A DNA stretch of 64,000 nucleotides from an uncultured Elusimicrobia bacterium (lineage in GTDB: Bacteria > Elusimicrobiota > Elusimicrobia > 2-01-FULL-59-12): positions 2,141-66,140 of the forward strand of contig CAZSAL010000010.1 in the NCBI GenBank assembly GCA_964604825.1. Reading direction: 5' to 3'. The translations under genes were made by a program, and so were the position numbers. Numbering within the stretch: the first letter of the stretch is position 1; every line of letters begins with the position of its first letter. The notes beneath the pieces are model-generated. The model searched no databases and was not told the DNA's origin. It saw only the letters and a list, made by a program, of their open reading frames with translations. Positions 1 to 43,459 of the stretch are shown piece by piece.

Positions 1-175
1 TCTCAAATTGAGCCAAGGATTTACATGATCCGGGGAAAGCAAGTAATGCTGAGTTCAACACTGGCTGAACTTTACAGAGTTCCTGTTGGAGTCCTTAATC
101 AGGCGGTAAAAAGAAACATATTCCGATTTCCACCGGAGCTTTTGGGTTCAGCTGAACCCCATTGAAGTTACAAAC

Positions 176-499
176 TTGAAATCACAAAATGTGATTTCAA
201 GTTGGGGCGGCGTTCGAAGGGGATTGCCTTATGCGTTTACGGAACATGGAATTGTGATGGTGTCGAGCGTTCTGCGAAGCAGGCATGCCATTGAAGTCAA
301 CATTGCTGTTGTGCGAGCTTTCGTTAAGCTGCGGCATGCACTCGAAGTTCGAAAGGATCTGAACATAAGAGTCGAGAGACTTGAAGGGAAGATCAACTTG
401 GTCGAAACCGATGTGCGCCAGATCCGAAATGCTGTCCAGCACATGAAAAGAATTCCGGAAAAGACCGGCCCAACAGTGAAAGGGTTTGAGAAGGAGTAG
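176..499 (+). CDS. ORF6N-domain protein, C-terminal segment. It is the downstream frame of a gene that starts before the window and shifts frame near 139-142.
   Basis: Frame-2 translation (TTG start) ...KSQNVISSWGGVRRGLPYAFTEHGIVMVSSVL... matches the conserved ORF6N/KilA-N-like core (SSWGG..LPYAFTEQG). Frame 1 of bases 1-165 encodes the N-terminal ORF6N part (IRGKQVMLSSTLAELYRVPVGVLNQAVKRNIFRFPPE) and ends at TGA 163-165. Confidence 0.55.
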   Translation: MKSQNVISSWGGVRRGLPYAFTEHGIVMVSSVLRSRHAIEVNIAVVRAFVKLRHALEVRKDLNIRVERLEGKINLVETDVRQIRNAVQHMKRIPEKTGPTVKGFEKE

Positions 500-529
500 C
501 CGCCGCCAACGAGGGCAGAACACTTATAT

Positions 530-1015
530 TTATCCAACCCGAATAATACCTAAATGTTTGCGGATAAATTTCAGGATGCACCAATTGAATCCATTATCAT
601 GAATAACTTTATGGAATGCTTCATAAACCGGGTGGGGATGATCCGCCGTCATTTCATCCATCCGGCGGCCTGGATCCACATCGTGGACCAGGATGAATCC
701 GCCCGGCTTAACCATCGGCAACCCACTTTGAATATCCTTAAGCGCCCCTTCATAAGTGTGATCCCCATCAACGAGATAAATATCAACCTCCCGAGGATAC
801 TCTTCTGCTAACCGCTGGACCAAAACCGCAGAGTTTCCGTTCAGCAATTGGACTATCTTATTGTGGCCGCCTATTCGCTGCAAGTTTTTCATTGTAACGA
901 TAGGATATGTGTTCGCTGAATAGGTGTCATTATCTATACAAATCAATCTCCCCTTCTCATTATCAACGATGGCTTTTGCCCAACCAATTGCCGTACCGCC
1001 GGCGTACGTTCCCAA
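530..1015 (-). CDS. class I SAM-dependent methyltransferase (Methyltransf_24/CmcI-like), TTG start, possibly N-terminally truncated
   Basis: Motif I-like GTYAGGTAIGWA, acidic LVDGDH and VKPGGFILVHDV fit the Rossmann SAM-methyltransferase fold. The ORF is bounded by a stop immediately upstream of the TTG, and it is about 40 aa shorter than typical family members. Confidence 0.55.
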   Translation of the reverse strand: MGTYAGGTAIGWAKAIVDNEKGRLICIDNDTYSANTYPIVTMKNLQRIGGHNKIVQLLNGNSAVLVQRLAEEYPREVDIYLVDGDHTYEGALKDIQSGLPMVKPGGFILVHDVDPGRRMDEMTADHPHPVYEAFHKVIHDNGFNWCILKFIRKHLGIIRVG

Positions 1016-1198
1016 TCAAGCGATCCAATCATCGGTGGGTGCGGAAGGATTCGGGCACATACATTTGTAGCGCTCTGCTTTGTCTGGGTGTTGTTACCCA
1101 AGATACTGGAGCCAACACTCTTGCTGATGTCCCACCCCAGTCCGGCTCCCGTCCTGAAACGGCCAGCAGGTGGGCATAAGCAGAGAACGGCTGACCTT

Positions 1199-2245
1199 TC
1201 AATTTCTTGCTTGCGTATATTTTTTTGAAAGATTAAGCAGGTGCGCTCCAGAGGCCTTGGCCATTTTGACGGCAACTGCATTTCCAATTTGCATCGCTAT
1301 TCGAGTAATAGATGAACCATAAAAAACGTAGTCGTCATCAAAACTCTGGAGCGCCGCCGCTTCCCTCAAAGATATTGCTCGATTTTGTTCCGGATGCCCA
1401 TACCTGCCATTAGAAATACTCCAACATTTGCACGTCAGCGCTGGCGCTGGTTTTCCCCAAGGGAGTCTCCCATACACATCCGTATGTCCGAGGTATTTTT
1501 TATGACACTCTAAACGCAACTCTGCAGGCCATGCAAACCGATTTCCGCCATCGGAAGGAGTGTTACGTAGTCTCCGAAAATTCGTTTTGGAAATTGATGC
1601 GGCCCGATGGTTTGGGATATTTAAATGTGACTCGCCCGCCTTAATGGGAGGATATTTTCTGATAGCGTCTTTAACAGTAACAAAGTCTCTGAGTTTAGGG
1701 CCATGCGTTGGTTCGGGCGGAGTAGGCTGGAATAATCTGGACGCGATTAAGATCAATCGTCGGCGAGTTTGCGGGACCCCGTAATGTTTTGCATCCAGAA
1801 TATTAATGGACACCTTATATCCTCTTGTCGTAAGCTCTTTTTCAAAACGACGAAATGCACTAAATCCTTTGACTTTCAAAATTCCCGGCACATTTTCGAC
1901 TAAGATATGTGCTGGTTTGAACGTGCGAACAAATTTTTGCACCTGCCCTAGCAGACTCTTTAAATGATGGTTGGAAAATTCGCGTCGCTGCTTAGTAAAC
2001 GGCTGGCAGGGTGCGCATGCGGCAAAGAGCAACTCGTCCTTATTTATCCCTTTCAAAAAAGGTCTCAGTTCTCTGGGCTTGAGCTTCCGAATGTCTTTGC
2101 AAAGGAATCGGGCTGGCGAGTTATTTTTCTCATATGTTTCCTGGCAACTTTCGTCCGAGTCTATCCCTAAGATAACATTAACGTTGGCATCCAAAAGGCC
2201 GCGAGTTAAGCCGCCGCCGCCGCAAAAGAAATCTACCGCTATCAT
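1199..2245 (-). CDS. DNA (cytosine-5)-methyltransferase
   Basis: Motif I IAVDFFCGGGG, PC motif IV APCQPFT, ENV motif VI ILVENVPG, and QTRRRLILIA. The ATG at 2245-2243 overlaps the stop of the upstream REC gene (ATGA), so the coupled start is preferred over the longer 2290 start. Confidence 0.85.
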   Translation of the reverse strand: MIAVDFFCGGGGLTRGLLDANVNVILGIDSDESCQETYEKNNSPARFLCKDIRKLKPRELRPFLKGINKDELLFAACAPCQPFTKQRREFSNHHLKSLLGQVQKFVRTFKPAHILVENVPGILKVKGFSAFRRFEKELTTRGYKVSINILDAKHYGVPQTRRRLILIASRLFQPTPPEPTHGPKLRDFVTVKDAIRKYPPIKAGESHLNIPNHRAASISKTNFRRLRNTPSDGGNRFAWPAELRLECHKKYLGHTDVYGRLPWGKPAPALTCKCWSISNGRYGHPEQNRAISLREAAALQSFDDDYVFYGSSITRIAMQIGNAVAVKMAKASGAHLLNLSKKYTQARN

Positions 2246-3396
2246 GATGTTCGGTTTGCCACCGTGTACGTCCAAATATCTGTTAACCATTGGTCAGTAT
2301 TGGTTTCTGGCAATCCGGGCCTTCCCACAATTTGCAGATAGGCCCAAACAATCTGTTCCCGAAATGGGCTGTCAATCGAAAGAAGGCGCTTAAATTTATT
2401 AGTAGGAACAGTGTCCTTGAATGAGATGTCCCCGATAGGAATCTGCAACAGTGACCGGACATTTACGGCTAGGGGTGGCATGATCGAAGGATATTCAGGC
2501 AATAATACATACCCGGCGAACTGAGTCTGCGTAATATGAGACGCCAATCTTTTGCGAAAATCACTTTCCGATGTTGTGGAAGTAACGCCACACTTTTTAG
2601 CGTACTCGTTTAAGTTCTCGCACCTCGCAACTAATATTTCGGCAGCACGACAAGAACCATCCTCACGAATAGCCATGTCGCAAGAGGGTGTAAGCACAAG
2701 AAAATATGCGGTTGCTGACTCCTTTGGCTGCCCCGCTTCAAAAAGAATATCGCCAGTTAATAGGCTCGCCTCAAGCGGTGGATATATGAATTGTTCCCAG
2801 GATATTAATTTCTCCGATGTGCGGGAAGTGTCCATATCCATCAGAGCCCCCATACGTCTTCGAGCAGTTCTGAGGAGCATCTTACTGCGCAAGGCTTCAT
2901 CGCTCTGCGCATCCCAAATGTTTTGACATGTTGTGCGCAAAATCTGTTGCGTCACCCCCGCAAATTCATCGCGAATATTGTTCAACGCCCCAATGTGTGG
3001 TAAGAATTCCTCCAAGGCTGCGACAACATTTTGATCGCTGGATTTACTTTTCGTGATAACTTTTACGAATGGATGATTTGGAGGGATACGAGGGCCAAGT
3101 TCCGCTTCCCCTGCCGTGTAAATTATTACAGGCGAAAAATGTTTCTCCCAAACGTCTTTCCATATTAATTCTCCATGCTTCTTACTATGTTGTGCAGGAT
3201 TACCTTGATACAGATCAAGCACAATAACATCAGGACGAGACGACGAAAGGTCAGATACACCTTTAGTAAAATCGCTTTCAATAGTAACGTCGGCCACAGA
3301 GGGTGGCCACTTCTCATTTATAGATTGTTTAACAACTTCGGCATGCTCTTTCTCGTCGTCGATTATGAGTATCCTAAAGGGGGTCTTTACAGGCAT
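2242..3396 (-). CDS. response-regulator receiver (REC) domain protein with a ~250-aa C-terminal domain that could not be assigned. Candidate effector of a defence two-component module.
   Basis: N-terminal CheY-like fold with acid pocket IIDDE (D13/D14), predicted phospho-acceptor D61 in VIVLDLYQG, T/S in IIYTAG, and K in VKVITKSK. The C-terminal 130-384 has no motif I could assign (contains LTPSCDMAIREDGSCRAAEILVARCENL). It lies 14 nt downstream of the kinase gene and is translationally coupled to the methyltransferase downstream. Confidence 0.75.
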   Translation of the reverse strand: MPVKTPFRILIIDDEKEHAEVVKQSINEKWPPSVADVTIESDFTKGVSDLSSSRPDVIVLDLYQGNPAQHSKKHGELIWKDVWEKHFSPVIIYTAGEAELGPRIPPNHPFVKVITKSKSSDQNVVAALEEFLPHIGALNNIRDEFAGVTQQILRTTCQNIWDAQSDEALRSKMLLRTARRRMGALMDMDTSRTSEKLISWEQFIYPPLEASLLTGDILFEAGQPKESATAYFLVLTPSCDMAIREDGSCRAAEILVARCENLNEYAKKCGVTSTTSESDFRKRLASHITQTQFAGYVLLPEYPSIMPPLAVNVRSLLQIPIGDISFKDTVPTNKFKRLLSIDSPFREQIVWAYLQIVGRPGLPETNTDQWLTDIWTYTVANRTS

Positions 3397-3409
3397 ATTA
3401 ATACCAGTC

Positions 3410-5533
3410 CTATCGTTTCAGAGGAATGTCAAAACCAAAGCTAGCGCCACCCAATTCGCCAGGCTGAATCAAATGCATTTTCCCGTCATATTGTGCGACT
3501 AATTCAGATGCGACGGTGAGACCCATGCCAATGCCATCCGGCTTCTTAGTGACCCCCGGCCAGAAAATCCGTTCTTCGTCTTCATGATCTATTCCAGGTC
3601 CTGAATCGTGAACTTTAATATAGAGTCGTTCTCCGTCAGATATTTTTTTAGCTCCCACTTTGATTTGGCGTTTATCTGGACCCACTTCTGATAACCAGTA
3701 AATTGCATTTGTTAGCAAATTCACGAGAATGGTTGATAGGTCGGCTGGATCAATTGCAACGATTTGAGCGGGGAATTCTTTCATACTAAGGCTGATTTTC
3801 AATTTATCTATATCCGGTTGATTCATAGCGACACATTCTTCCATGATGGTCTTTGCATCGCAATTCCGGAGTTGCTTACTTTGACTTCGATTGGCCAATG
3901 GCGCAAATGTGTTCGCTAAGTGTTCCAAAGTGTCAACTGCATGCTCAGCTAACCGAATATTTTTTTCATACGGCTTGAGAGCCTCGCTTTGATCTTCAAT
4001 GGCTTTTAGAAGCAATCGATTCAACTTGCTGATTGCGAGCAATTGATTCCTGACTTCATGAACGATAGTCGCAGCCATTATCCCAAGGCTTGCCAGACGA
4101 CTGTAATAAACAAGCCTCTTCTCAATTTGCTTGATTACTTGTTCCTGTTCGGCGGCAAACCGTTGAACAGCAGATACTAATTCTGCTGGCCCGTTCTTTT
4201 CTTTTGAAATTCGCTCAATTGTTTCCACCATTTCGCGAGGAGACAGATTCGAAAACAAATCTTTAAATGGCGGCTCCTTGTGCTTGGCTCCTTGACGGTC
4301 AGAATCTCGTTCTCGTTCAAGAACAGGGAATAATCGCGTTTTGAAAATTTCGCAGAATTGGCGAAATGCCTGATTATCTTCAAGTCTTTCTCGATCACTG
4401 GTGTCTTTAAGACGACGATTCTTATCCGCAGATATGGCGATATACCCAATAATCTGGTTTGTGCTCAGACGCACACCAACCCGACTAACTCGACGAAGAT
4501 CGATTCCCATCCAGTCGATCGCCGATCCAGATTTAGGAAGGACTAAAATTCCATCGCGGTAAAGAGAGATCCCTGACTGGGCTTTTATCGTGTCGCGAAC
4601 ATCCTTTCTGTCTAGATGGAGTTCTCCACTAAGATCTTCGAGCTCGCCAAGTGCGATATCCCAAACTCTTAATTCAAATTCAAATGGTCCACATATGAGA
4701 TCCTTTTTCCTGCGCTGAATTGGATCAGATGACGTAGTCAAGACATCCAAAGTGAATGGGACACTCCTTTTCTTCACTCGTCTACTGAAACAATATTCGG
4801 CGATTATCTTACCCGAATCATCAACCTTACCCTTTAACAAATAAGGTGGGTTCTCCAAGAATGCAGGAGGATTAATTTCAAGAGGGATGGAGCCTCCTTC
4901 GGGCAATGTTAGCCGTATTGAAAAGTTGTCCAATTGACGGAATGGTGGGATTAGCCTTGCTAGACACTCGCGCAAATTAGCAAATTCGTCTTGATCCCAT
5001 TCAGTCTTTAGATCAATAATGCGCAAAATTGTACCCGTGGAAGAAAATGGGCTCTCCTCAACCTCATCTACCCTTATCTTATACGAGTCGATATCTTCAG
5101 CGCTCTCCAGCGTGTCCCAGCTAACGTTAAATCTGAAGCAAGGACTGGCCTGTGCTTTCGTTATTACTTCAATTTCCTTTCCCAAACGAGCGGAGGACAA
5201 TCTGCCCAATCCCTTTTCTCCAGAGACACGTCTTTTCATCGCGCCTGACTTCATAAATGGCATCTTAAGGCGATACGGTGTGGCCACCACTGCCCAAACA
5301 TCCTGGATAATTTCTCGCGTCATCCCAGTTCCGTTATCTTCTATTTCGACCGCCATTGTCCCGGAGGTATTCCGAATGAACCGAACATCCACGCGTGTAG
5401 CTAAAGCATCGTAGGAATTCTTGACGAGTTCCATGATTGCGACGATATCACTGGTTACCAAATCCGCTCCTAGCGCCGCAAAGACACGAGGATGCATCCT
5501 GAATGTGACCTGGTTGTTAATTGGAGTGTTCAT
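3410..5533 (-). CDS. cytoplasmic sensor histidine kinase with an N-terminal MORC/HATPase_c_3-like GHKL ATPase domain (GHKL - linker - HisKA - HATPase_c)
   Basis: N-terminus: Bergerat N-box ELVKNSYDA, G1 EDNGTGM and G2 GEKGLGRLS, which is the HATPase_c_3/MORC type. C-terminus: H-box ATIVHEVRNQLLAI, N-box LLTNAIYW, HDSGPGID and GIGMGLTVA, a classic histidine kinase catalytic core. I found no hydrophobic TM stretch. Local GC is lower than in the core genes. Confidence 0.75.
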   Translation of the reverse strand: MNTPINNQVTFRMHPRVFAALGADLVTSDIVAIMELVKNSYDALATRVDVRFIRNTSGTMAVEIEDNGTGMTREIIQDVWAVVATPYRLKMPFMKSGAMKRRVSGEKGLGRLSSARLGKEIEVITKAQASPCFRFNVSWDTLESAEDIDSYKIRVDEVEESPFSSTGTILRIIDLKTEWDQDEFANLRECLARLIPPFRQLDNFSIRLTLPEGGSIPLEINPPAFLENPPYLLKGKVDDSGKIIAEYCFSRRVKKRSVPFTLDVLTTSSDPIQRRKKDLICGPFEFELRVWDIALGELEDLSGELHLDRKDVRDTIKAQSGISLYRDGILVLPKSGSAIDWMGIDLRRVSRVGVRLSTNQIIGYIAISADKNRRLKDTSDRERLEDNQAFRQFCEIFKTRLFPVLERERDSDRQGAKHKEPPFKDLFSNLSPREMVETIERISKEKNGPAELVSAVQRFAAEQEQVIKQIEKRLVYYSRLASLGIMAATIVHEVRNQLLAISKLNRLLLKAIEDQSEALKPYEKNIRLAEHAVDTLEHLANTFAPLANRSQSKQLRNCDAKTIMEECVAMNQPDIDKLKISLSMKEFPAQIVAIDPADLSTILVNLLTNAIYWLSEVGPDKRQIKVGAKKISDGERLYIKVHDSGPGIDHEDEERIFWPGVTKKPDGIGMGLTVASELVAQYDGKMHLIQPGELGGASFGFDIPLKR

Positions 5534-5633
5534 GCTTTTTGGTAAAGGACCTCATTTTGTAATTTTTCGAAGCTCCGAGTGCTCCATTTTTTGGAGGACG
5601 TCGCGCAGGTACGGTTTCCCCGCCCCAATCTTC

Positions 5634-6050
5634 TCAGACTAACCTTTTACGAATCCGACTCATAACCATTTCGGGATTTTTCTTTATATCATGTTCCCAT
5701 ATTCGAATCACATGCCATCCATTCCGCCTCAACTTGGCACTGACTCTTCGATCTCGTCTTCTATTTGTCCGTAATTTTTCAGCCCAGTAAACGCTATTGC
5801 TAGCTGGTTTTAGGTTCCTGCGACATTTCGTGCAGCCATGCCAAAAACATCCATCAATGAAAACCGCTAATTTTGCCCCCGGAAATGCAATATCTGGCCG
5901 ACCAGGCAATTTCGAAAGATGGCGCCGCCACCCCACGATTCTGTGACGTCTTAACATGCTGACAATCACGCGCTCAGTGGATTGGTTATTTCGGCCTTTT
6001 ATTAAAGCCATCACAGCAGAACGCTTGGCTCGGGTGAAAATATCCGCCAT
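5634..6050 (-). CDS. vsr: very short patch repair endonuclease (Vsr)
   Basis: DIAFPGAKLAVFIDGCFWHGC...WHVIRIWEHD is the Vsr signature (FxDGCFWH, catalytic D, C-terminal H). It sits next to C5-methyltransferase genes, as expected for a T/G mismatch repair partner. Confidence 0.85.
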   Translation of the reverse strand: MADIFTRAKRSAVMALIKGRNNQSTERVIVSMLRRHRIVGWRRHLSKLPGRPDIAFPGAKLAVFIDGCFWHGCTKCRRNLKPASNSVYWAEKLRTNRRRDRRVSAKLRRNGWHVIRIWEHDIKKNPEMVMSRIRKRLV

Positions 6051-6058
6051 GCTCTAAC

Positions 6059-7174
6059 CTACGGTACGACGATATAGCTTGCCGGTCGGCGACGCACCAA
6101 TAGATTGATCAGTTTTTTCAGTGGCGGGCAGACCGGGCTCCTTACCATATCTTCGAAACTAGGTTTCGTTTTGCCGTCCTTCGGAGCGGCGGAAATAGGC
6201 CCCGAATACAATTTCCCTTCAACTAAATCGATAACGTCTTTCGGCTTTCTAAAACTTTCGGCGTAGGAGAAACTGAGGAGATTTACTTCCGACGTTATCT
6301 CGGACAGGAATTTATAAACATCAAGAGCTGTTGTAGCGCTGATATATTTGACGAGCACGTCTTGAACTATCCAGATCGTTTTGCCGCCCCAAGCGATCCC
6401 CACCTCGGATTTCACAATAAGTTGGCTGACCATACGTGCCCAGACCTGCCGATAATTTATGCCCGGAGCGCTGTGCTCTCGGCCTAAAATCGCATCCTCA
6501 AAGGCCATAGGGATCGTCGTCCGTTTTGTCTTGTTGCCGCCAGAAGTACTGGACGTCATTATCTCTATAACGGCCGGTATCCCTACCGGCGCATCGTCGA
6601 CGAAATAGGCGTTACCTCGTTTAGCGATGGTGTAACCCTCTCTTTCAAAATGAGGTTTTAGAAATCCCCATTTCTCACCAGTTGAATTTTCGATCTCTTC
6701 CTGGCTGGAGACACCGAGAGGCATCAATATGTAGTCGAATGTATAATCAAAGGCTTTCTCAACACCATTGATCTTCTCGACATATTTAAGTTTAACTTCG
6801 GGCCAAATGCCCAGCCGTGTGCCGGATTCGTATCCGCATAAACTCAAGACCTTGTCCTCAACTTGGCGTTGATGGGCACGCCTTTCCGCGCTATCTCTCC
6901 CAAGAGCCAGGAGGCGACGTGGGCATACGATCCAAGGCGCATCGTCTTCGCGCATTTGAAGCGAACAAACGCCGGAGCAGACTTTCTCCTTACCAGTACC
7001 GAAAAATCGTTCAAGCGCTTTATTGCCTGATATGACTACATCGGAGAGGTATCTATTACCCCCACCGTCGCACTCTCGGTTCATGAAAGGACAGAGAGCC
7101 GATTGTCGATTACGAGTGGCTTCTTTGGAAGTATCTGCTACTGGATATCCGTAGAGTTCGAATATTTTTGCCAA
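6059..7174 (-). CDS. putative type II restriction endonuclease, NotI-family-like, with a Cys-rich N-terminal metal-binding cluster
   Basis: The N-terminus has ALCPFMNRECDGG...VCSGVC...IVCPRR. This Cys4-type cluster and the FELYGYPV lead-in are reminiscent of NotI-like enzymes. It lies between a C5-methyltransferase and vsr, in an operon with an ATGA-style overlap. The assignment is from memory of the family, not a search. Confidence 0.5.
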   Translation of the reverse strand: MAKIFELYGYPVADTSKEATRNRQSALCPFMNRECDGGGNRYLSDVVISGNKALERFFGTGKEKVCSGVCSLQMREDDAPWIVCPRRLLALGRDSAERRAHQRQVEDKVLSLCGYESGTRLGIWPEVKLKYVEKINGVEKAFDYTFDYILMPLGVSSQEEIENSTGEKWGFLKPHFEREGYTIAKRGNAYFVDDAPVGIPAVIEIMTSSTSGGNKTKRTTIPMAFEDAILGREHSAPGINYRQVWARMVSQLIVKSEVGIAWGGKTIWIVQDVLVKYISATTALDVYKFLSEITSEVNLLSFSYAESFRKPKDVIDLVEGKLYSGPISAAPKDGKTKPSFEDMVRSPVCPPLKKLINLLVRRRPASYIVVP

Positions 7175-8346
7175 TTAGGTGTTCCCAAGATCGCGAGGGC
7201 TATCGCCTTCGCAACAGGCGGCGGAACCGAGTTAGCAACTTGACGGTGCTGGTCAAGCTCGCGTACGCTGCCTGATCTTCCCCGGATAGGTCCTTTCAAA
7301 TGATAGTCATCTGGGTATCCATGCAATCTCATGTATTCCCGAGGAGTCAAATATCGATCTTCTGTTGGATGGAAGAAAATCTCACCACAACGAAGCGTCA
7401 AGGATGGTTGTTTCCTAGATAGCCGACGAAATTTCGTCGTATCTTTTTTGGATAGTCTTCCCCGCTGTTTTGCCGGAAGATGATGTTGGGCGGATAGATG
7501 ACCTCCTTCTGGTACTCCACGAATGCGCTTATAGTCCCCGTCAGGCGTGATATCGACGTGACTATCCGCAAATTGCGCCCCGTCAGATTTTCGTCTAGGC
7601 TTAGGCAATCCAGCCAGGACCCGCCCAGCCGTGACGAAGGGAGGAAGGGGAAATAGAGTCATCTCGGTTTCGGGGTCCGCATGGGTTGGGGAAGGAAAAA
7701 CGAAACCGTTCGGCTTAGGAATAGCGACGGTAATGACACGTTGACGTAGTTGAGGCACTCCGTACTCCGCGGCATTTACCACTTTCCATTTCGGGACATA
7801 TCCCAAGCTCGAGATTTCCCCCAAAAACATTTCGAATACTCCACCAGGCTTTCCGGTATGATCCGGCGCATTGAGCAATCCCTTAACTTGCTCTACGATG
7901 AGGGCTTTTGGTCTAAGGACCTTTGCGAATCTGGCAATCTGAAACAACAGCATGCCTCGTTCGTCGCTCAAGCTCTCACGTTTGCCAATCTGAGAAAAAG
8001 CCTGGCAGGGCGGACCTCCAAAAAGCAAATCAAGCTCCCCAATTTTTAAGCCCAACTCTTTCATGAGATTCTCAGGATCAATCGTTCGAATATCCGCTTG
8101 GATCACCTTCGTCTTTGGGCTCTTTTTTAAGAACGAGGACCTCAACGTTTCGCAACAGTTGGGGTCCATTTCTATGCAAGTCAATATCTCGAACCCGGCT
8201 TGATGAACACCGAGGTCCATGCCACCCGCTCCTGAAAATAGCGAGATTGCCGTATATGAGGTTTTGGGGTTCTTTCGAATTGTCTTTAAGATAGGGTCTG
8301 CTGTCGCGAAAGTCATATCATTCCTCCAAGGATTATATATAGGCAA
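7138..8346 (-). CDS. DNA (cytosine-5)-methyltransferase
   Basis: Motif I ISLFSGAGGMDLG, PCQ motif IV LLFGGPPCQAFSQIGKRE, motif VI ALIVEQVKGLL and motif VIII QLRQRVITVA, with a large variable target-recognition region. Confidence 0.85.
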   Translation of the reverse strand: MPIYNPWRNDMTFATADPILKTIRKNPKTSYTAISLFSGAGGMDLGVHQAGFEILTCIEMDPNCCETLRSSFLKKSPKTKVIQADIRTIDPENLMKELGLKIGELDLLFGGPPCQAFSQIGKRESLSDERGMLLFQIARFAKVLRPKALIVEQVKGLLNAPDHTGKPGGVFEMFLGEISSLGYVPKWKVVNAAEYGVPQLRQRVITVAIPKPNGFVFPSPTHADPETEMTLFPLPPFVTAGRVLAGLPKPRRKSDGAQFADSHVDITPDGDYKRIRGVPEGGHLSAQHHLPAKQRGRLSKKDTTKFRRLSRKQPSLTLRCGEIFFHPTEDRYLTPREYMRLHGYPDDYHLKGPIRGRSGSVRELDQHRQVANSVPPPVAKAIALAILGTPNWQKYSNSTDIQ

Positions 8347-8563
8347 GTAGCGTCCGTTAAGAGCTTTCTGCCCAGAGACACCAAAGACTTCTTATATATT
8401 AGAGTCGAAAAGCCGAAAAATATTCATTTACTGACGGAAAAGCACGGTTCAGGTGGGTCCTCAAGCAGACGGTCGGTTTCGAAATATAAAACGAGGGAAG
8501 AGGACTCAAAACCTCGGATGGGTTCGCCCTTTCCGTTTTCTGAACACGTTGGGGATGGGGAAC

Positions 8564-8758
8564 CTATAGCAGAATCGACGGTCGGTTCCGACTCTCTCCG
8601 GCTTCCAAGTCTTCCATGTTGTCGTAAAGAACAACCACTTCCTCACTGATCGCGATCACCTTCCCGCTCTTAAGCGTGACCAAGTCCAATATGGTCCCAC
8701 CACCCGAATCCCAAGAGGAAACATCTTCGACATACTCAGCCTTCAGTGCATCATTCAC
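8564..8758 (-). CDS. small hypothetical protein (64 aa)
   Basis: ORF only, in the gap between the island operon and tRNA-Ser. No recognisable motif. Confidence 0.2.
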   Translation of the reverse strand: MNDALKAEYVEDVSSWDSGGGTILDLVTLKSGKVIAISEEVVVLYDNMEDLEAGESRNRPSILL

Positions 8759-8808
8759 TGGATGACCTCCTACTAGATAGCATTACGACTATTTCAAGAA
8801 AAATAAAA

Positions 8809-8895
8809 CGGAGGGAGAGGGATTCGAACCCCCGGTACCCTTTCGGGTACAAACGATTTCAAGTCGTTCGCTTTCGACCACTCAGCCATCCCTCC
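8809..8895 (-). tRNA. tRNA-Ser (anticodon TGA)
   Basis: The reverse complement reads GGAGGGATGGCTGAGTGGTCGAAAGCGAACGACTTGAAATCGTTTGTACCCGAAAGGGTACCGGGGGTTCGAATCCCTCTCCCTCCG. It has a 7-bp acceptor stem, anticodon stem AACGA/TCGTT with loop CTTGAAA giving anticodon UGA, a long variable arm (Ser type), a GTTCGAATC T-loop and discriminator G. CCA is not encoded. Confidence 0.85.
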
Positions 8896-9020
8896 AAAAA
8901 TTTGTTTACAACTCCATGCAGCCGACTTTACAGCCACATCGTACAAAAGCGTAAAACTCGGTATCACTCCGTTTCACTTCTCTGAATGAACAGGTGCGGC
9001 AGCTTCGGCCTTTCATTTAC

Positions 9021-9060
9021 CTTCAAGTCGTCCGCTTTCAACCGTTCCCAACCTCCAAAA
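9021..9060. repeat. degenerate duplicate of the tRNA-Ser 5' half plus 5 nt of its flank (about 80% identical)
   Basis: ttcaagtcgtccgctttcaaccgttcccaacctccaaaa aligns with ttcaagtcgttcgctttcgaccactcagccatccctccaaaaa at 8862-8900. Confidence 0.4.
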
Positions 9061-9065
9061 TCATT

Positions 9066-10214
9066 TTATCCAAGGCGCAGACCTGGGATCTGTTTTAATC
9101 CGATGGCGGTGACGCGTTCCGACAATGGAAATGAATGATCCCCCGGATAGACGATCCACAAATGCGAGAGACGGAGGTCCTTTAAGACCACATGAATCGA
9201 TTTCGTGAGACGCGGGGTCTCGGACACTTTAAACTCGAATCCCCATCGGCGGCTTCCCCGCGGCACAAAAAGATCCAGTTCCGCGCCGGCATGCGTCGCC
9301 CAGAAATAGACATCGCGTTCGCCGACAATCTTGAGAATCTGCTCGATGGCGAATCCCTCCCATGATGCGCCCAGCTTCGGATGCGCCTGAAGGTCCCGCC
9401 AAAGAGAAAACCTCATCAGGCTGTGGAACAACCCCGAATCCCGGATATAAATCTTGGGCGCCTTGACGACCCTTTTCCCCATATTCTCGTGCCACGGCGC
9501 CAATTGCCGAACCATGAAGGCGCCGCTCAATAAATCCAGGTAATCCCGAGTCGTCGTATGGGCCAGGCCCAGAGAGGCCGCGATCTCCGACGCATTCCAA
9601 ACCTGTCCATGATAATGAGCCAACATGCTCCAGAATCGACGCAGTTTTCCCGCCGGAATCCGAATGCCCAGACGGGGAATGTCACGCTCAAGAAAAGTGC
9701 GGATAAAATCGTCCCGCCACTGGAGGCTTTGGGACTCCGCCCGCGCCAGGAAAGACCCTGGAAATCCTCCCCGCAACCAGAGCTTTTGTTGGGCGCCCGG
9801 CCCCACCTCGTCCAGCGTAAATCCTCCCATATCTACAAAATGGATCCGTCCGGCCAGAGATTCCGAGGCGCCGCGCACCAGGTCAGGAGAAGCGCTCCCC
9901 AAAAGTAAAAACCGAGAGCGTCTGGGTCTGCGGTCCGCCAGCCCGCGGAGGACGCCGAAGATGTCAGGGCGAAGCGGAACTTCATCGAGGATGACAAGCC
10001 CCCGGAGCCCTTCCAGCGCCGTTCGGGGGTTTTGCAGCCGAGCATCATCGGCCGGATTCTCAAGATCGAAATAATGGCTTGCTTGACCCCGGGCGGCCTG
10101 TCGGGAGAGGGTGGTCTTCCCGCTTTGACGCGGGCCCAGGAGCGCCGTCACTGGATAATGATGGAGTCCCTGAGAGAGCCGGCGTGACAGCCGGGAGCGT
10201 GGGATAAGCGGCAT
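9066..10214 (-). CDS. AAA+ ATPase of the AAA_14/DUF4143 family
   Basis: Walker A GPRQSGKTTL, Walker B-like VILDEV, and the characteristic C-terminal DUF4143-like region (FWATHAGAELDLFV...). Confidence 0.7.
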   Translation of the reverse strand: MPLIPRSRLSRRLSQGLHHYPVTALLGPRQSGKTTLSRQAARGQASHYFDLENPADDARLQNPRTALEGLRGLVILDEVPLRPDIFGVLRGLADRRPRRSRFLLLGSASPDLVRGASESLAGRIHFVDMGGFTLDEVGPGAQQKLWLRGGFPGSFLARAESQSLQWRDDFIRTFLERDIPRLGIRIPAGKLRRFWSMLAHYHGQVWNASEIAASLGLAHTTTRDYLDLLSGAFMVRQLAPWHENMGKRVVKAPKIYIRDSGLFHSLMRFSLWRDLQAHPKLGASWEGFAIEQILKIVGERDVYFWATHAGAELDLFVPRGSRRWGFEFKVSETPRLTKSIHVVLKDLRLSHLWIVYPGDHSFPLSERVTAIGLKQIPGLRLG

Positions 10215-10381
10215 GGGGAGATTCTAGAAAACTGAGCCCATGGTAATCAAATTTCAAGGAAGATGCCGGGGACATGAACCCCCTGTTTTTTTGGCGTTCC
10301 GGCTTCGGTGCAGCGATGGTTTTGGGCCCGCTAAAATTGAGCCCGGGGGCTCTCCGCAACGTCAGTTTAATTTTATTCCAT

Positions 10382-10663
10382 TCACTGCTGTTTATCGTAC
10401 TGCTCTTCGATAATCTTCAGAGACCCGGTGACAGAGGCATTTTCGCTAGGCAGACAAATGACGCGATCTTTTCCATACTCGCTGCGTAAAACAGTAAGCA
10501 CTTCATCCAGCCAGGAAGGACCCACGGCAAGAACACCGCTGAAGTCGAGCTCAATTCGGTCGCCCGGCTGCGGTTTGAAATAAGCTTTGATAGCCAGTCC
10601 GGCTTCCCGACCCGAAGGCCTGGACGTCAGGATTTCTCCAAACTTTCTCACTTCAACTTTCAC
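10382..10663 (-). CDS. STAS-like DUF4325 family protein
   Basis: A ~90-aa protein (ELDFSGVLAVGPSWLDEVL) of the type that follows HATPase-type ATP-binding proteins. It overlaps the upstream gene by 4 nt. Confidence 0.55.
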   Translation of the reverse strand: MKVEVRKFGEILTSRPSGREAGLAIKAYFKPQPGDRIELDFSGVLAVGPSWLDEVLTVLRSEYGKDRVICLPSENASVTGSLKIIEEQYDKQQ

Positions 10664-11436
10664 TGCAACCCCCAGACTAAAAGGGTGACGGTGCCTTCAA
10701 CGTTGCCAAAATGCTTATCTAAAACAGTTGCGCACTTCTCCCCTTGTTCACCATAAAATACACGGCCAGTTCCAGAAACACAGGCTAGGCCACAATTCGG
10801 ACTGGTCGAAACAGTTTCTCTGACAAACTTAAGTCCGTTGCCGCGCTGCTCCGGAGCACGGCCAGAAATATTGGTTTCAAATGCGGCTTTCACAGCTGCA
10901 TGTTCATCTGCCAGATCAGGAAGAACCTTGACCAGGGACCGGAATATTCCTTGTCCCCTGTCAGCGATGCAGATCCAGAACCTCCGTCCAGTGATCTGCG
11001 ACTCGAACCAGCAGCCGGGAACGTCCCTCCACTGCCCGATATTATGGTCGAACGAATTATTACCAACTTCGCCAGCCGTCGAAATAACCAGAGGCAAAAG
11101 GTTTTCCTGCAGTCCGTTTCTGACAAAAGATTTCAGATGAGGCAGTCTGGCAGTGAAAATATCACGCGTCTCGCATACCAGTGACTCCGGACTTTTGGGC
11201 GCAGCCTGCTCACTCATCCATCCGGAAGCCGCTCCGAAATCCGGTACCCCGGCTAATGCGTAATGCACCAAAGGAGCTGACCCTTTGGCCTCAATAATTC
11301 CTTGCTCTGTGAGATCCTTTAAATGACGGTGAATAGCCTGAGCAGAAATGTTCAAGGACTTCCGTAAATCAAAAGGCCTGATTTTTCCGCTTTTCTCAAT
11401 TATTTCAAGGATTTGAGCTCGTGTATTTGTTTTCAT
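10660..11436 (-). CDS. winged-HTH transcriptional regulator fused to an anti-sigma-factor-like HATPase domain
   Basis: N-terminal wHTH (LNISAQAIHRHLKDLTEQGIIEAKG). C-terminal Bergerat boxes GEVGNNSFDHN (N-box), ICIADRGQGI (G1) and RGNGLKFV (G2). Confidence 0.6.
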   Translation of the reverse strand: MKTNTRAQILEIIEKSGKIRPFDLRKSLNISAQAIHRHLKDLTEQGIIEAKGSAPLVHYALAGVPDFGAASGWMSEQAAPKSPESLVCETRDIFTARLPHLKSFVRNGLQENLLPLVISTAGEVGNNSFDHNIGQWRDVPGCWFESQITGRRFWICIADRGQGIFRSLVKVLPDLADEHAAVKAAFETNISGRAPEQRGNGLKFVRETVSTSPNCGLACVSGTGRVFYGEQGEKCATVLDKHFGNVEGTVTLLVWGLQ

Positions 11437-35579: not shown

Positions 35580-38500
35580 TTATTCACCGTCTGCCGCCAT
35601 GGGCAAATCTTCAACAGGTCCCGTGGAAATAATGTCTGTATCGACACCTGCACTCACCAAATCTTCCTCCGGCCAGTTGCGGCAGAGGAGTTCCGTCTGC
35701 TTGAGCACGGTTTCGGTGGCTCTTTCCTGTTTGTCCGGCGGATACCCGTGCTCGCGGAGGAGGCGTTTGATGGTGACTCGCATTCTTGCGCGCACGGATT
35801 CTTTGAGTGACCAATCAACAGCAAGATTCTGACGAACAGACTTAACGAGGTCCCTGGCGATAGCGCCAAGAACCTTGTCCCCCAAAATTTTGACGGCGCT
35901 GTCGCTGGTTTCCAGAGCGTCGTAAAAAGCCAGTTCATCTTCGGTTAAACCAAGCTTTTCACCCCTCTTGTGCGCCTCGCGCATCTCCCTGGCAAGCTTG
36001 ATAAGTTCCTCAATGACCTGAGCCGCTTCAATGGCCCGGTTGTGGTAGCGCTGAATGGTTTCCTCAAGCATTTTGGCGAAAGACCGCGACTTCACCAGGA
36101 ACTTTCGTTCCCGAATTTTAATTTCATCTTCCAGAAGTTTCCGCAGCGCTTCCGCCGCCAGATTCTTCTGAGGCATGCGCCGCACTTCATCCAGAAACTT
36201 GTCCGAGAGAATCGATATATCCGGTTTTCCCTGACCGCTCGCCGCAAAAATATCGACCACTTTGTCTGAGTAAACCGCACCGGAAACAATCTGCCGGATG
36301 GCATTATCCAGGTCCGCCGGATCCGCGCCGCCGGCCTCGGTGTTCTTGATCAAAGAGGCCTTGATCGCCTGGAAATAGCTCACCTCATTACGAACAGCCA
36401 GGGCTTTATCATGAGGAACTGACAACGCAAATGCCTGGGACATCTCCGCGACTGCCTGAAGGAAGCGCTTCTTCCCATCCTCAACCTGCTGAAGAATATA
36501 ATCCATGCCGCCGCTCACGGCCGCTACGCGTTCCCCTGCCGTTCCTTTAAAGAACTTCCCATAGTCATATTTCCACCCGCCCGAGCCCTTAGCAGCGGGC
36601 GGGTGCGGCCGGAGAGGTTTCCCAGCCACAGGTTGGGACCCTGTCGGACCGGCGAAAATACCGCGCAGCACTTCAAGTTTCTCCAGGAGTTTCGCAACAG
36701 CTATTTCCTGATCAATACCCGCAGCCTTCCGGTCCCGCTCCGAGTACTCGGCCAGGGCGGCTTTCAGCTCGTGGGCAATGCCCAGATAATCCACGACCAG
36801 CCCGCCCGGTTTATCCTTAAAAACCCGGTTCACCCGTGCAATGGCCTGCATCAAACCATGCCCGCGCATGGGCTTGTCGATATACATCGTATGGAGAGAC
36901 GGCACATCAAACCCGGTCAGCCACATATCCCGCACAATCACCAGCCTGATGGGACACTCCGGCTTTTTGAATTCGTCCCCCAGCCGCTTGCGTCGCTCTT
37001 TATCGCGGATATGTGCCTGCCACTCCGGACCGTCCGCCGCTGATCCAGTCATCACTACCTTCAGAAATCCCTTTTTATCGTCCGGATCATGCCATAGAGG
37101 GCGAAGCTTGACGATTTCGTTATAAAGGTCAACGCAGATACGGCGGCTCATGCAGACGATCAGCCCTTTGCCTTCCATGGCTTCCCGCCGTTTCTCAAAA
37201 TGCTCCACGATATCCTTTGCGATAAGCCTGATTCGCCTCTCCGCTCCAACCAATGCTTCCATGCGCGCCCACTTGGTCTTAAGCTTTCGCTGGACGTTTT
37301 CCTCTTCGCCCTCCGTGACTTCTTCAAACTGAGGATCGATCTTCGGCATTTCTTCGGGTTTGAGGCCGAGCTTGGCCAGGCGGGCTTCGTAATAAATGGG
37401 AACTGTGGCCTTATCTTCGATTGATTGATGGATATCGTAAATATCGATGTAATCACCGAAAACCGCCCGCGTGTTGCGGTCGCCTGCCTCAATCGGCGTA
37501 GCGGTGAACCCGATGAACGAGGCTTGCGGCAGGCAGTCCCGCATATGCTTAGCCAGGCCTTTAATGAAATCGTATTGGGACCGGTGCGCCTCATCCGCGA
37601 TCACAACAATATTGCGCCGATCAGAAAGCAAAGGATTCGTGTCCCGTTCGCTATTCCTTTTCGACGGGACCTGCAGCGATGAACTCATCCGCTGCAGATC
37701 ACCTTTCTGGTCTGGCAGGAACTTCTGAATCGTCGTAAATATGACACCGCCTGAGGCGCGCTTGAGAAGCTCCCGGAGATGTACCCTGCTGGTCGATTGG
37801 ATGGGCGCCTGAGCAAGAAGATCCGAACAAGGCACAAAGGTCCTGTCAAAAAGCTGGTCATCCAGATCGTTGCGATCAGTGAGAAGGACCAGGGTAGGAT
37901 TTTTCATCTCCGGATGCTGGATTATTTTCCCTGCATAAAAAACCATGGTCAGGCTTTTACCCGAGCCCTGAGTGTGCCAGACAACTCCCGCCCGCCTGTC
38001 TCCCTTGACGGCCTTGACCGTAGCTTCAATTGCCTTTTGCACCGCATGGAACTGATGATAGCTGGTCATCTTTTTGATGGTGGTTTTCTCGCCATGCTCG
38101 AAGACCGTGAAATAACGGATCAAATCCAGGAAGCGTTTCTTTTCGAACATACCCTTGATGAGCACTTCAAGCTGCGGCCGGCTTGAAGGGGCCAACTCGC
38201 GCCCGTCCACAGTCCGCCAGGGCATGAAGCGTTCCCAATCCGATGAAACAGTTCCCGCTCTTGCGGCGAGACCGTCGGAGATAATCAGCGGCCCGGCGAA
38301 CTGAAACAAAGAAGGAATTTCCTCCTTGTATGTCTCGAATTGTTTGAAGGCTTCCCGGACGGACGTTTGCTCCTTGGCAGGATTCTTCAATTCAAAGACA
38401 GCGAGCGGCAGGCCGTTCACAAAAATCACAACATCCGGCCTCCGGTTATGCTGATTTTCAATAACCGTGAACTGATTCACAACCAGCCAGTCATTAGCTT

Positions 38501-38921
38501 CAGCATCGTCAAAATCGATCAGCCGCGCATGATCAGATACCGTTCGCCCGTCGCCCTGATAATCTACCGGAACGCTTTCGATCAGATATTTATGAAACTG
38601 TTCGTTATTCTGCAGCAGGCTGGGATGTTCACTTCGCAGGACTTTACGGAAGGCATCGTCTAAAGCATCAGCAGGAATTTTCGGATTCAGCTTCGCCAGC
38701 GCCGATTTCAACCGCCCCGGCAGGACAACTTCTTCGTAGCTAGACCGCTCTGCGGGCCCATCAATCGCAACGGTGAAACCTCTTTGCGATGGTGCCGCTT
38801 CCGCTGCCGCAACAGGGAGCGGCGCAGGGGCAATGTCCGGGCCATGAGCGATAGAGTAGCCTAGGCTTTCCAGCCATTCAAGCGCGGCGTCTTCAGCGGT
38901 GGATTCGGTGATCGGGTTCAC
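35580..38921 (-). CDS. hsdR: type I restriction enzyme R subunit HsdR
   Basis: HSDR_N, the ResIII/DEAD helicase motifs ([12 protein letters not shown]-like [11 protein letters not shown]) and the C-terminal domain. 1113 aa. Confidence 0.9.
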
Positions 38922-38923
38922 AA

Positions 38924-39970
38924 CTATTTCTTTTTCCTCTTCCCGTGGGGTGGCGTAAGTTTTTTGATTTTTTCCACCACTTTATCGAAGTCGGACACCG
39001 GCTGGTTAGCTTCGATCCGCCGCCGGGTCTCCTCGTATTTCCCAAACTCGTCCTCAGCATGAGCGGCCGCGAGCTCATGCGATACCCTGCCAGCATGCGA
39101 CAGAATATTGCGTTCGTTGAACTGGAGAAAACCATCCAGTTTTTTCACCCAGTCCGCCATCTTCATCGGCGTGCGCCTGCGCGCCTGATCCTCGGCGTAA
39201 TCGAGATACATGGCGACCACGCGGTTCAACTCGCGCAGTTCTTCCTCATTCAGGTAGTTCTTGGCTACGGTAACGTCGGACCGGCGGATATGGCCTCTGG
39301 GTGCGTTCTTCCACGTAGTCAGTCCCATATTCGGCTTGCCGGCGTCCGCCCGGCCATAAATAATCTCTGCCGCCGTGTGCCCGTGAATCGCCCAATGCAG
39401 TTTGTTTTGCACTGTGGAGTAGAACGTCTGCGTGATCTCCGCCTGGGCATCATAATCGATGCTGCACTGCGCATAGATGTCGGTGATCTTCTGGTAGAAC
39501 CGCCGCTCCGAAGCCCGGATATCACGGATGCGTTCCAGCAACTCATCAAAATAATCTGCGCCCAGGTTGGCTCCGGACTTGAGGCGTTCGTCATCCATCG
39601 TAAACCCTTTGACAATGTACTCCCGCAGACGCTGTGTCGCCCAGATGCGGAATTGCGTGCCTCGTTGGGACTTCACGCGGTATCCCACAGAGATAATGAC
39701 GTCCAGGTTGTAGAACTGTGTCCGATAATTTTTCCCATCAGGGGCAGTCGTCAAGGAATCCTTGACAACTGAATCTTCAGACAATTCTTTCTCGGAAAAG
39801 ATATTTTTGATATGCAGACTGACATTTTGCTTCGTTGTTTGAAGCAACTCCGCGATCTGATTTTGAGTGAGCCAGACCGTTTCGTTTTCCAAACGTACAT
39901 CCAGCCGGGTCTGCTTATCTTCCGTCTGGTAGATTAGAATTTGAGATTGTTCAGAAGGTTCTTTCTTCAT
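38924..39970 (-). CDS. RhuM family virulence/Fic-associated protein
   Basis: The conserved RhuM core (..[17 protein letters not shown]..). It is inserted between hsdS and hsdR, and its GC is lower than the flanking genes. Confidence 0.8.
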
Positions 39971-40165
39971 TTAAATACTTCCCTCCATCAAATCTTGGCT
40001 ACACGTCCACTCAGGTAAAGATTCCTCATGCGCGATCTCTGGCCCGTGAGCGATGCGGTAGCCAAGACTTCCCATCCATTCAAGAGCGGCGGCGGCGGTG
40101 GATTCGGAGAACTTTGTAATTCTACTCATCTCTTGGGAGAAAGTTTGGGGTTTCTCCAGACCCAA
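39971..40165 (-). pseudogene. duplicated fragment of the hsdR 5' end (HSDR_N N-terminal ~45 aa)
   Basis: ESTAAAALEWMGSLGYRIAHGPEIA aligns with the HsdR N-terminus [26 protein letters not shown]. Nucleotide identity is roughly three quarters by eye. Confidence 0.5.
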
Positions 40166-42152: not shown

Positions 42153-42187
42153 ACCCGAGCTCCTTCAAGCGGTTGTAGTGCATTGTC

Positions 42188-43360: not shown

Positions 43361-43459
43361 ATATTTGCTATTAAATTATACACGCTTATAGTTTAATAAT
43401 CTATAGTGTTATTAAGCTTTAGGTTAATAGATAAAACACATCTACAATACATGCAGTTT

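Follow-up and report, generated by a model that had tools for sequence, protein, structure and literature searches.

The 64,000-nucleotide stretch of contig CAZSAL010000010.1 (assembly GCA_964604825.1, an uncultured Elusimicrobia bacterium), referred to below as the window, begins with an array of restriction-type genes at positions 1–8807. Very probably, this array consists of two separate units, the second of which is a conserved four-gene unit. This second unit, module 2 (1199–6050, minus strand), encodes a Vsr very-short-patch (T:G mismatch) endonuclease, a soluble sensor kinase, a response regulator, and the cytosine-5 (C5) methyltransferase M2. The first unit, module 1 (6059–8346, minus strand), encodes another C5 methyltransferase, M1, and a candidate type II restriction endonuclease of 371 residues. 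The region is unremarkable as a genomic island; its value lies in module 2.

Module 2 is colinear in distant phyla, on plasmids, and in two viral-collection contigs. The full order of Vsr, kinase, regulator, and M2-like methylase genes is found in four other loci (L003, L004, and the viral-collection contigs L183 and L184). In these loci the Vsr gene is directly upstream of the kinase gene, and an M2 ortholog (51–79% identity) follows the regulator gene; the M2 orthologs co-vary with the kinase and the regulator. In each of the eight other loci examined, the gene directly after that of the kinase encodes the regulator, an M2-like methyltransferase gene is at most two genes away in all eight (nine of nine with the window included), and Vsr is present in six of the eight (seven of nine with the window). 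In L005 and L006 the order of the module varies, with Vsr retained inside it. Conjugative plasmids of Acaryochloris and Campylobacter carry the methylase–kinase–regulator trio alone, without Vsr. Across loci, module 2 is found next to GmrSD, SIR2, nSTAND, HNH, and relaxase genes and on conjugative plasmids. Vsr, the kinase, the regulator, and M2 are thus one conserved operon.

Among 2.9 million viral-collection contigs of IMG/VR, relatives of the regulator are encoded in only two (L183 and L184), each of which has the full Vsr–kinase–regulator–methylase order. The closest relative of module 2 (62–79% identity) is in L003. There (L003:5680–9276), the module adjoins another C5 methylase, a 282-residue protein, and a second Vsr, and an NOV_C protein and a relaxase are encoded in the same locus. 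Thus, a second, unrelated C5 restriction–modification (R-M) unit again accompanies module 2, in this case in an apparently mobilizable element.

The boundary between the two modules of the window can be placed between 6059 and 6050, based on the gene orders kept in other loci, the co-variation of M2, and a difference in the guanine plus cytosine content of third codon positions (GC3), which is 0.48–0.50 in one module vs 0.42–0.44 in the other. The same difference suggests separate acquisitions. Vsr goes with the kinase and not with the NotI-like gene of module 1. An earlier note on this DNA had described one minus-strand series of C5 methyltransferase, NotI-like endonuclease, Vsr, kinase, receiver (REC) protein, and C5 methyltransferase. 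All six genes are indeed present in this order, and the composite restriction-type content stands, but the flat list missed both the four-gene operon and the independence of the M1–nuclease cassette. The spacing is also as had been described, with an ATGA-type overlap and gaps of 8–100 nucleotides, the largest before the kinase gene. Read directly, the stop codon of the REC gene and the start codon of M2 form a true ATGA overlap (2245–2242); the gaps are 8 nucleotides between the nuclease candidate and Vsr, 100 between Vsr and the kinase, and 13 between the kinase and REC genes.

The first gene of module 2, vsr (5634–6050, minus strand), exceeds the curated cut-offs of both TIGR00632 (109.4 vs 97.85 bits) and PF03852 (67 vs 27 bits). 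The last gene, encoding M2 (1199–2290, minus strand), matches PF00145 with E 1.3e-49.

The 707-residue kinase (3410–5533, minus strand) starts with a MutL/MORC-like GHKL ATPase head, followed by a conserved middle region; its C-terminal part holds the DHp His-box and the catalytic ATPase domain. Pfam assigns HATPase_c_3 to residues 31–159 and HATPase_c to residues 595–706. Residues 13–206 match the BbrUII/HgiDII restriction enzyme family (NF050001, E 3e-23). In the PDB, histidine kinases match over approximately residues 456–705 (best E 5.7e-16) and MutL N-terminal domains over residues 23–81. The N-terminal Bergerat motifs (E35, N39, D42, D66xGxG, and the Gly-rich loop) are invariant in five diverse homologs, and the kinase core (H492-E493-x-x-N496, N605/N609, D643xGxG, and G667xGxG) is also invariant. 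The middle region is strongly conserved, including the segments YRDGILVLPKS and DTSDRERL. The sequence shows no evident hydrophobic segment, in keeping with a soluble protein. One kinase homolog (L005:4581–6995, in a 3.1-Mb ENA/NCBI contig) carries approximately 17 tandem PLESV pentapeptides at its N-terminus, not seen in other homologs.

The 384-residue response regulator (2242–3396, minus strand) comprises a REC domain, a helical hairpin (residues 120–189), and a C-terminal domain (residues 190–384) with a MazF/PemK-like predicted fold. The Pfam match to REC is weak. OmpR-type receivers and the N-terminal domain can be superposed at a template modeling (TM) score of about 0.8, and across 99 homologs the REC pocket residues D14 and D61 never vary, K116 being nearly invariant (at least 90%). 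AlphaFold models the full-length protein with a confidence (predicted local distance difference test) of 94.3 and the C-terminal domain, taken alone, with one of 91.0. When the latter is compared with the PDB by Foldseek, every one of the top 50 matches is a MazF-family toxin (E from 2.5e-4, target-normalized TM 0.58–0.73). Judging by these models, the likeness of the C-terminal domain to MazF/PemK toxins would be one of fold alone. In both, the first strand begins with a GD motif; approximately 80 extra residues, other invariant positions, the fusion to REC, and the lack of an antitoxin gene distinguish the regulator domain from MazF, PemK, and Kid.

Several observations weigh against assigning a toxin-like activity to this domain. 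It has no Pfam PemK match, and hhalign of the regulator C-terminus with the verified E. coli MazF sequence gives a probability of 0.4%; sequence-level kinship with MazF was rejected on these two results. By eye, the positions of the MazF catalytic Arg and Thr are not conserved in the regulator family, which has invariants of its own: G215-D216, P-S-C-D at 237–240, D342, R346-E347, and R359. Even plasmid copies with 23% identity keep GD and PSCD. The SH3-like barrel may be a binding rather than a catalytic domain. No small upstream antitoxin-like gene was found in any locus examined.

A profile of the C-terminal domain retrieves 934 cluster representatives, 512 of them at E up to 1e-10. In the best 150 of the 934, the domain occupies positions approximately 180–370 of proteins of approximately 350–470 residues and stands behind REC in nearly every full-length protein; the remainder of these 150 are shorter (approximately 180–300 residues) and fragment-like. 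Given this position among the best 150, the domain appears to be a dedicated REC-linked output.

As a tentative model, to which we give somewhat less than an even chance, module 2 may work by a phosphorelay-gated effector mechanism. M2 would mark the host DNA. The MutL/MORC-like head, possibly with the middle region, would monitor DNA, and its ATP-driven dimer state would change on unmarked or foreign DNA. The head would then switch on the attached histidine kinase, leading to autophosphorylation at H492 and transfer of the phosphoryl group to D61 of the regulator. The MazF-fold domain, released or activated as an effector, would cause nucleic-acid cleavage or growth arrest, and Vsr would repair T:G mismatches arising from deamination of 5-methylcytosine, limiting the mutational cost. 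DNA sensing, kinase-to-regulator phosphotransfer, effector activity, and the defense role itself are all suggested, with the same reserve, by gene content, motifs, and predicted folds. The kinase and the regulator are regarded as the restriction arm because the trio stands alone on plasmids, the head is homologous to restriction enzymes, and the predicted output is toxin-like and not DNA-binding. Two results weigh against the model: the kinase core and the regulator match no PADLOC model, and no experimental test of module 2 was found in the later literature.

A stronger version of this model is more doubtful. In it, module 2 would represent a novel class of immunity that depends on methylation, with a GHKL ATPase scanning DNA and unmethylated DNA triggering a His–Asp phosphorelay to a toxin-fold effector. 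The restriction arm would then, with the same doubt, be a signaling cascade with an abortive-infection-type output, not a site-specific DNA cutter.

The closest described proteins are those of Bellieny-Rabelo, Pretorius and Moleleki (2021; PMC8011034). The accessible part of that paper gives a computational description of the Response_reg_2 proteins and the HEF_HK proteins, which are two-component-like and linked to R-M systems and paraMORC. A HATPase_c_3–DHp–HATPase_c protein is encoded beside a REC-like protein (91.6% linkage), with C5 methylases in the vicinity and, in many cases, an adjacent Vsr. Module 2 shares with this family, as far as it is described there, the soluble kinase-like protein of the same three-domain architecture; the adjacent REC-like protein with conserved Asp, Asp, and Lys and no recognized output domain; and the tight linkage to C5 methylases, frequent Vsr, and patchy spread across phyla. 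Two observations count against this assignment. The models PF19191 (kinase DHp) and PF19192 (regulator) match no protein of the window at E up to 10 and none of six relatives at E up to 0.01, the result for PF19192 being qualified by the unconfirmed presence of this model in the searched copy of the Pfam library. The His box of module 2 is H-E-x-x-N with an invariant Asn at H+4, a position at which PF19191 reportedly has no conserved T/N. Despite these non-matches, all the architectural and contextual features accessible in that description are seen in module 2, and from its sequence we consider it a probable member of the same kind, from a lineage outside the coverage of the Pfam models. Elusimicrobiota, the host phylum, is not mentioned in the accessible part of the paper. 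The additions made here are the model-based assignment of a fold to the output domain and the evidence that the four genes form a unit. The predicted MazF-like fold appears to be new, since the accessible text of PMC8011034 gives none for this domain.

The same authors report no known output domain and, in the accessible text, suggest that the pair regulates R-M systems. The kinase and the regulator of module 2 could likewise be a regulatory two-component system for neighboring R-M genes and not the restriction arm, as the signaling cascade proposed in that part of PMC8011034 would imply. Separate nuclease genes near some loci (HNH_2 in L005, NOV_C in L003, and module 1 in the window) agree with this explanation. 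However, the regulator has no Pfam-recognized helix-turn-helix or other DNA-binding output, and its predicted output is toxin-like in fold; the Campylobacter and Acaryochloris trios have no other nuclease to regulate; and a methylase kept across phyla without a restriction partner would be unusual. We therefore consider a purely regulatory role unlikely.

The head of the kinase points to another known group. As shown by Iyer, Abhiman and Aravind (2008; PMC2292703), the MutL-like ATPases known as paraMORC are components of R-M operons that also encode cytosine methylases and nucleases of the Vsr type. Like paraMORC and BbrUII/HgiDII-type restriction enzymes, the module 2 kinase has a MutL-like ATPase at its N-terminus, with the ExxxNxxD, DxGxG, and Gly-rich motifs intact, and is encoded beside cytosine methylases and Vsr-family nucleases. 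The similarity does not extend further: the module 2 kinase ends in a histidine kinase core in place of a nuclease, TIR, or other extension; the match to NF050001 is confined to profile positions 5–196 of 659; and module 2 has no superfamily II helicase gene.

The same association would allow a role in repair or genome maintenance, where the MutL-like ATPase and Vsr handle methylase-linked damage and the phosphorelay reports it. The Vsr gene directly precedes the MutL-like kinase gene in the window as in the four colinear loci, and the stimulation of Vsr by E. coli MutL is an established interaction, cited in PMC2292703. On the other hand, the absence of Vsr from the Campylobacter and Acaryochloris copies makes it accessory, Vsr goes along with C5 methyltransferases generally, and the patchy, plasmid-borne distribution in defense islands better fits a selfish or defense element. 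This explanation is very improbable.

Phosphorelay-based defense has a precedent in Detocs, an experimentally demonstrated anti-phage two-component system in which defense requires His and Asp and which consists of the TPR kinase DtcA, the stand-alone REC protein DtcB, and the REC-effector DtcC (Rousset et al., 2023; 10.1101/2023.01.24.525353). Both systems pair a histidine kinase with a REC-effector in which another domain, cell-arresting in Detocs and putatively so in module 2, takes the place of a DNA-binding output. Beyond the phosphorelay logic they have no components in common. Module 2 lacks the TPR sensor, the buffer REC protein DtcB, and the PNP effector; Detocs, in turn, lacks a methylase or Vsr, and no sequence relationship between the two was detected with PADLOC. 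MADS was also considered as the identity of the methylation-plus-kinase set and was rejected, as it has an N6 methylase and eight different genes.

A toxin-like fold also raises the possibility that module 2 is mainly an addiction (post-segregational killing) element, in which the MazF-fold regulator would poison the cell and the methylase would be the antidote. Its presence on conjugative plasmids is consistent with this, and R-M systems are known to act in such a way, as discussed in the accessible part of PMC8011034. Still, an antitoxin-like partner is not present, the ATPase and the phosphorelay would be superfluous for simple addiction, and addiction is compatible with a defense role as well. 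Addiction as the main function is thus improbable, and the phosphorelay-gated model is retained as the working one.

Module 1 is simpler. M1 (7138–8346, minus strand) matches PF00145 (E 3.7e-60) and TIGR00675 and has the GPPCQ motif. The gene for its 371-residue partner (6059–7174, minus strand) overlaps that of M1 by 37 nucleotides, its TTG start at 7174 being backed by the conserved N-termini of homologs. The partner has 1189 homologs at 50–65% identity across phyla. Three loci (L178, L179, and L180), drawn from two independent contexts, have the homolog gene directly after a C5 methyltransferase gene and overlapping it. In these loci the pair is inserted as two genes between unrelated housekeeping genes, and neither Vsr nor a kinase accompanies it. 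M1 and its partner are an independent, self-contained cassette, probably a conventional type II R-M pair. M1 would methylate the target site, and the partner would cut unmethylated copies of the same site.

The nuclease function of the partner is suggested by the strict pairing with a methylase and by a NotI-like N-terminal region with four cysteines (C28, C35, C70, and C84) invariant in the family. This Cys-rich region and that of NotI have CPF, GVC, and VCP motifs in common. In NotI, the Cys-rich N-terminal region is said to bind iron. The profile of the 371-residue protein aligns by hhalign to NotI, residues 4–89 to NotI 15–87 (79% probability, E 1.6e-5, 68 columns), using a NotI sequence confirmed against PDB 3BVQ, and a single-pair BLASTP gives E 4e-4; neither method finds similarity past approximately residue 90. 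There is also a weak match to PADLOC REase_II (E 2.9e-4). No Pfam domain was found, and searches of Pfam (up to E = 10), NCBIfam, and PDB sequences and profiles gave no match to NotI. Membership in the NotI family was rejected, since the similarity stops at the N-terminal motif. The designation of a NotI-like endonuclease in the earlier note therefore holds for the N-terminal cysteine-rich region and fails for the rest of the protein. The sequence makes this protein a candidate type II nuclease with a putative NotI-like metal-binding N-terminus.

The composition of the region differs from that of the rest of the window. The GC content is 0.468 at 1–8807 vs 0.532 at 8897–64000; GC3 is 0.42–0.50 in the island genes vs 0.55–0.69 in most other genes of the window; and codon-usage divergence (Kullback–Leibler) is 0.22–0.27 in the island genes, two to four times the value of 0.05–0.12 in core genes of similar length. 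Every gene between 530 and 8346 is set apart by both GC3 and codon-usage divergence. glyA (49635–50891), argJ, and argC, with GC content of 0.53–0.57, were confirmed where the earlier note had placed them, and its suggestion that the island is AT-richer than the glyA–arg cluster is supported. The shift is real, but not unique, as the type I R-M block at 40–45 kb is likewise GC-poor.

Statements on the DNA outside the window are based on locus L001 (JGI contig Ga0455670_0002290), which reaches 7.7 kb past the window start; a second assembly shows the same arrangement as the window. Low GC content continues through two small open reading frames (ORFs) and a Fic gene (window −757 to −1932) until about −2.75 kb, and beyond this point it climbs to 0.54–0.58, in a region encoding HipBA and a 2167-residue beta-CASP protein. 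The AT-rich block is thus approximately 11 kb long. Neighbors and debris of the mobile-DNA type include a broken ORF6N gene and Fic, ParB-HTH, and HipBA genes. On balance, positions 1–8807 appear to be part of an approximately 11-kb horizontally acquired, now immobile defense island that extends approximately 2–2.8 kb past the window start and contains two cytosine-5 methylation systems and debris.

The other edge of the block is formed by a tRNA gene. ARAGORN predicts tRNA-Ser (anticodon UGA) at 8808–8896; from the acceptor stem GGAGGGA/TCCCTCC and the discriminator G, the mature ends are 8895 and 8809 (minus strand), with the 3' end toward the island. The low-GC block begins exactly at this 3' end, and the island genes run from 8758 down on the same strand, in agreement with the claim that the island adjoins the tRNA-Ser 3' end at 8809. 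A 41-nucleotide decayed direct copy of the T-arm, the acceptor 3' end, and the bases immediately downstream is located at 8477–8517 (minus strand), inside the island edge and only 290 nucleotides from tRNA-Ser. It has a local alignment score of 33, compared with a mean of 22.9 and a maximum of 30 in 100 shuffles of 1–8769, and was also recovered as repeat family D9. When elements stack at a tRNA, old attachment sites look like degenerate copies of the tRNA end, and the decayed copy is a candidate remnant of such a site. Acquisition as a tRNA-linked island is, in our judgment, probable.

On the other side of tRNA-Ser there is a partial copy of its 5' part, from the D-arm to the anticodon loop (9022–9043, extended to 9061, minus strand; 20/22 matches). 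It is located 125 nucleotides upstream of the intact gene, directly after the stop codon of the AAA_14/DUF4143 gene, and its gapped extension scores 41 vs a shuffle maximum of 30. With the copy at 8477–8517, tRNA-Ser is bracketed by its own fragments.

The integration machinery itself was not found, which weighs against a tRNA-linked origin. There is no integrase gene in the 16.5 kb examined (window −7758 to 8807), and no intact direct repeat of the tRNA-Ser 3' end was found. The best distal candidate, at approximately −2004 between the Fic and ParB-HTH genes, has 18/21 matches and a score of 27, within chance (shuffle maximum 30). The integrase and tRNA-end repeat that the earlier note proposed to look for upstream of position 1 were thus not found in the 7.7 kb beyond the window; of its "classic genomic-island placement", the tRNA adjacency and the composition are supported.

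Comparison with other genomes does not supply an empty site, which is a further point against. In a scan of species genomes with the flanking MiaB-like protein, the nearest are Elusimicrobia metagenome-assembled genomes with 57–65% identity; they have no tRNA within 10 kb and zero synteny or shared neighbors, and are too distant to show one. The 42-nucleotide 3' half of tRNA-Ser, used as a metagenome probe, retrieves at least 120 contigs from other taxa, with no flank similarity among the matches listed. The tRNA identity is approximately 84–88% for the best matches listed, except for L102 (97%), an unrelated contig that resembles the window in the tRNA and has no protein-level similarity to it elsewhere. 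An exact-protein look-up of the flanking genes yields nothing besides the source contig, a single copy in ENA, and two contigs in Logan, and all assemblies carrying the flanking proteins either have the island or end inside tRNA-Ser. No near-identical DNA was found in the plasmid collection.

The two contigs ending inside tRNA-Ser, L007 and L185, come from one Logan sample (SRR6946416) and break at approximately window positions 8850 and 8838. The break likely results from a tRNA sequence common to many organisms in the sample. Since this tRNA half is common to many taxa, the break is no evidence for an alternative junction, and a strain without the island may exist in SRR6946416.

Accessory-type genes are also present across the tRNA, among them AAA_14/DUF4143 and DUF4325 genes. 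This again weighs against a tRNA-linked origin, because with such genes on both sides the tRNA may simply sit inside a variable region. The corresponding scenario is piecemeal arrival of the modules by recombination into a variable defense hotspot, without tRNA-targeted integration and with an incidental tRNA adjacency. The missing integrase and intact attachment repeat, the accessory genes on both sides of the tRNA (including the PADLOC candidate system PDC-S01 and the DUF4325 pair), the difference in GC3 between the two modules, and the R-M block at 40–45 kb with no adjoining tRNA all agree with it; the tRNA-end copy 290 nucleotides downstream, which beats every shuffle, and the onset of low GC exactly at the tRNA 3' end do not. 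We regard piecemeal arrival as possible but doubtful, and retain acquisition as a tRNA-linked island.

The accessory-type genes across tRNA-Ser occupy 9066–11436 on the minus strand. The AAA_14/DUF4143 ATPase encoded there matches PDC-S01 with E 6e-79, and a helix-turn-helix (HTH) protein is paired with a DUF4325 STAS-like protein, the HTH gene having a GC3 of 0.47. The second GC-poor block (approximately 35580–45007, minus strand) is a type I R-M system with HsdM (43460–45007), HsdS (40899–42152), and a Fic/DOC gene between them (42188–43360); the 1113-residue ORF at 35580–38921 may encode HsdR.

The two ends of the array contain further small features. Between the tRNA and the decayed repeat, a 64-residue ORF (8564–8758, minus strand) is called as a gene in three assemblies and has zero matches in Pfam, PADLOC, NCBIfam, and PHROGs. 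Downstream of M2, a truncated class I SAM-dependent methyltransferase of the Methyltransf_24 family (530–1015, minus strand; PF13578, E 9e-19) opens at the domain start, with upstream stop codons in all frames. It is followed by an ORF6N (phage anti-repressor-type) gene on the plus strand (1–499; PF10543, PADLOC PDC-S05, PHROG anti-repressor), which runs off the window start. This gene is frameshifted near nucleotides 140–175, its N-terminal half being in a different frame and the PF10543 and PDC-S05 matches falling on its 3' part. A methyltransferase fragment and a broken ORF6N gene had been recognized at these places before.

The starts of both methylase genes can be refined. The longest ORF of M1 begins at TTG 8346, and a GGAGGA ribosome-binding site precedes ATG 8316; a promoter-like site (10/12) is found near the M1 start, at 8360–8332. 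The positions of these two sites favor the 392-residue form, and the true start is probably ATG 8316, as in public gene calls. For M2, the true start is probably the ATG at 2245. Promoter and terminator scans gave counts not above those in shuffles.

In summary, hundreds of genomes contain the gene set of which module 2 is a compact, intact representative; judging from the accessible literature, this set is known from only one computational paper. With its intact ATPase sites, His box, and REC pocket, a co-evolving methylase, and a predicted toxin-type fold of the output domain, module 2 is directly testable. If the phosphorelay-gated model is true, module 2 would link epigenetic self-marking with two-component signaling and would be the second case, after Detocs, of a phosphorelay serving as an immune switch.

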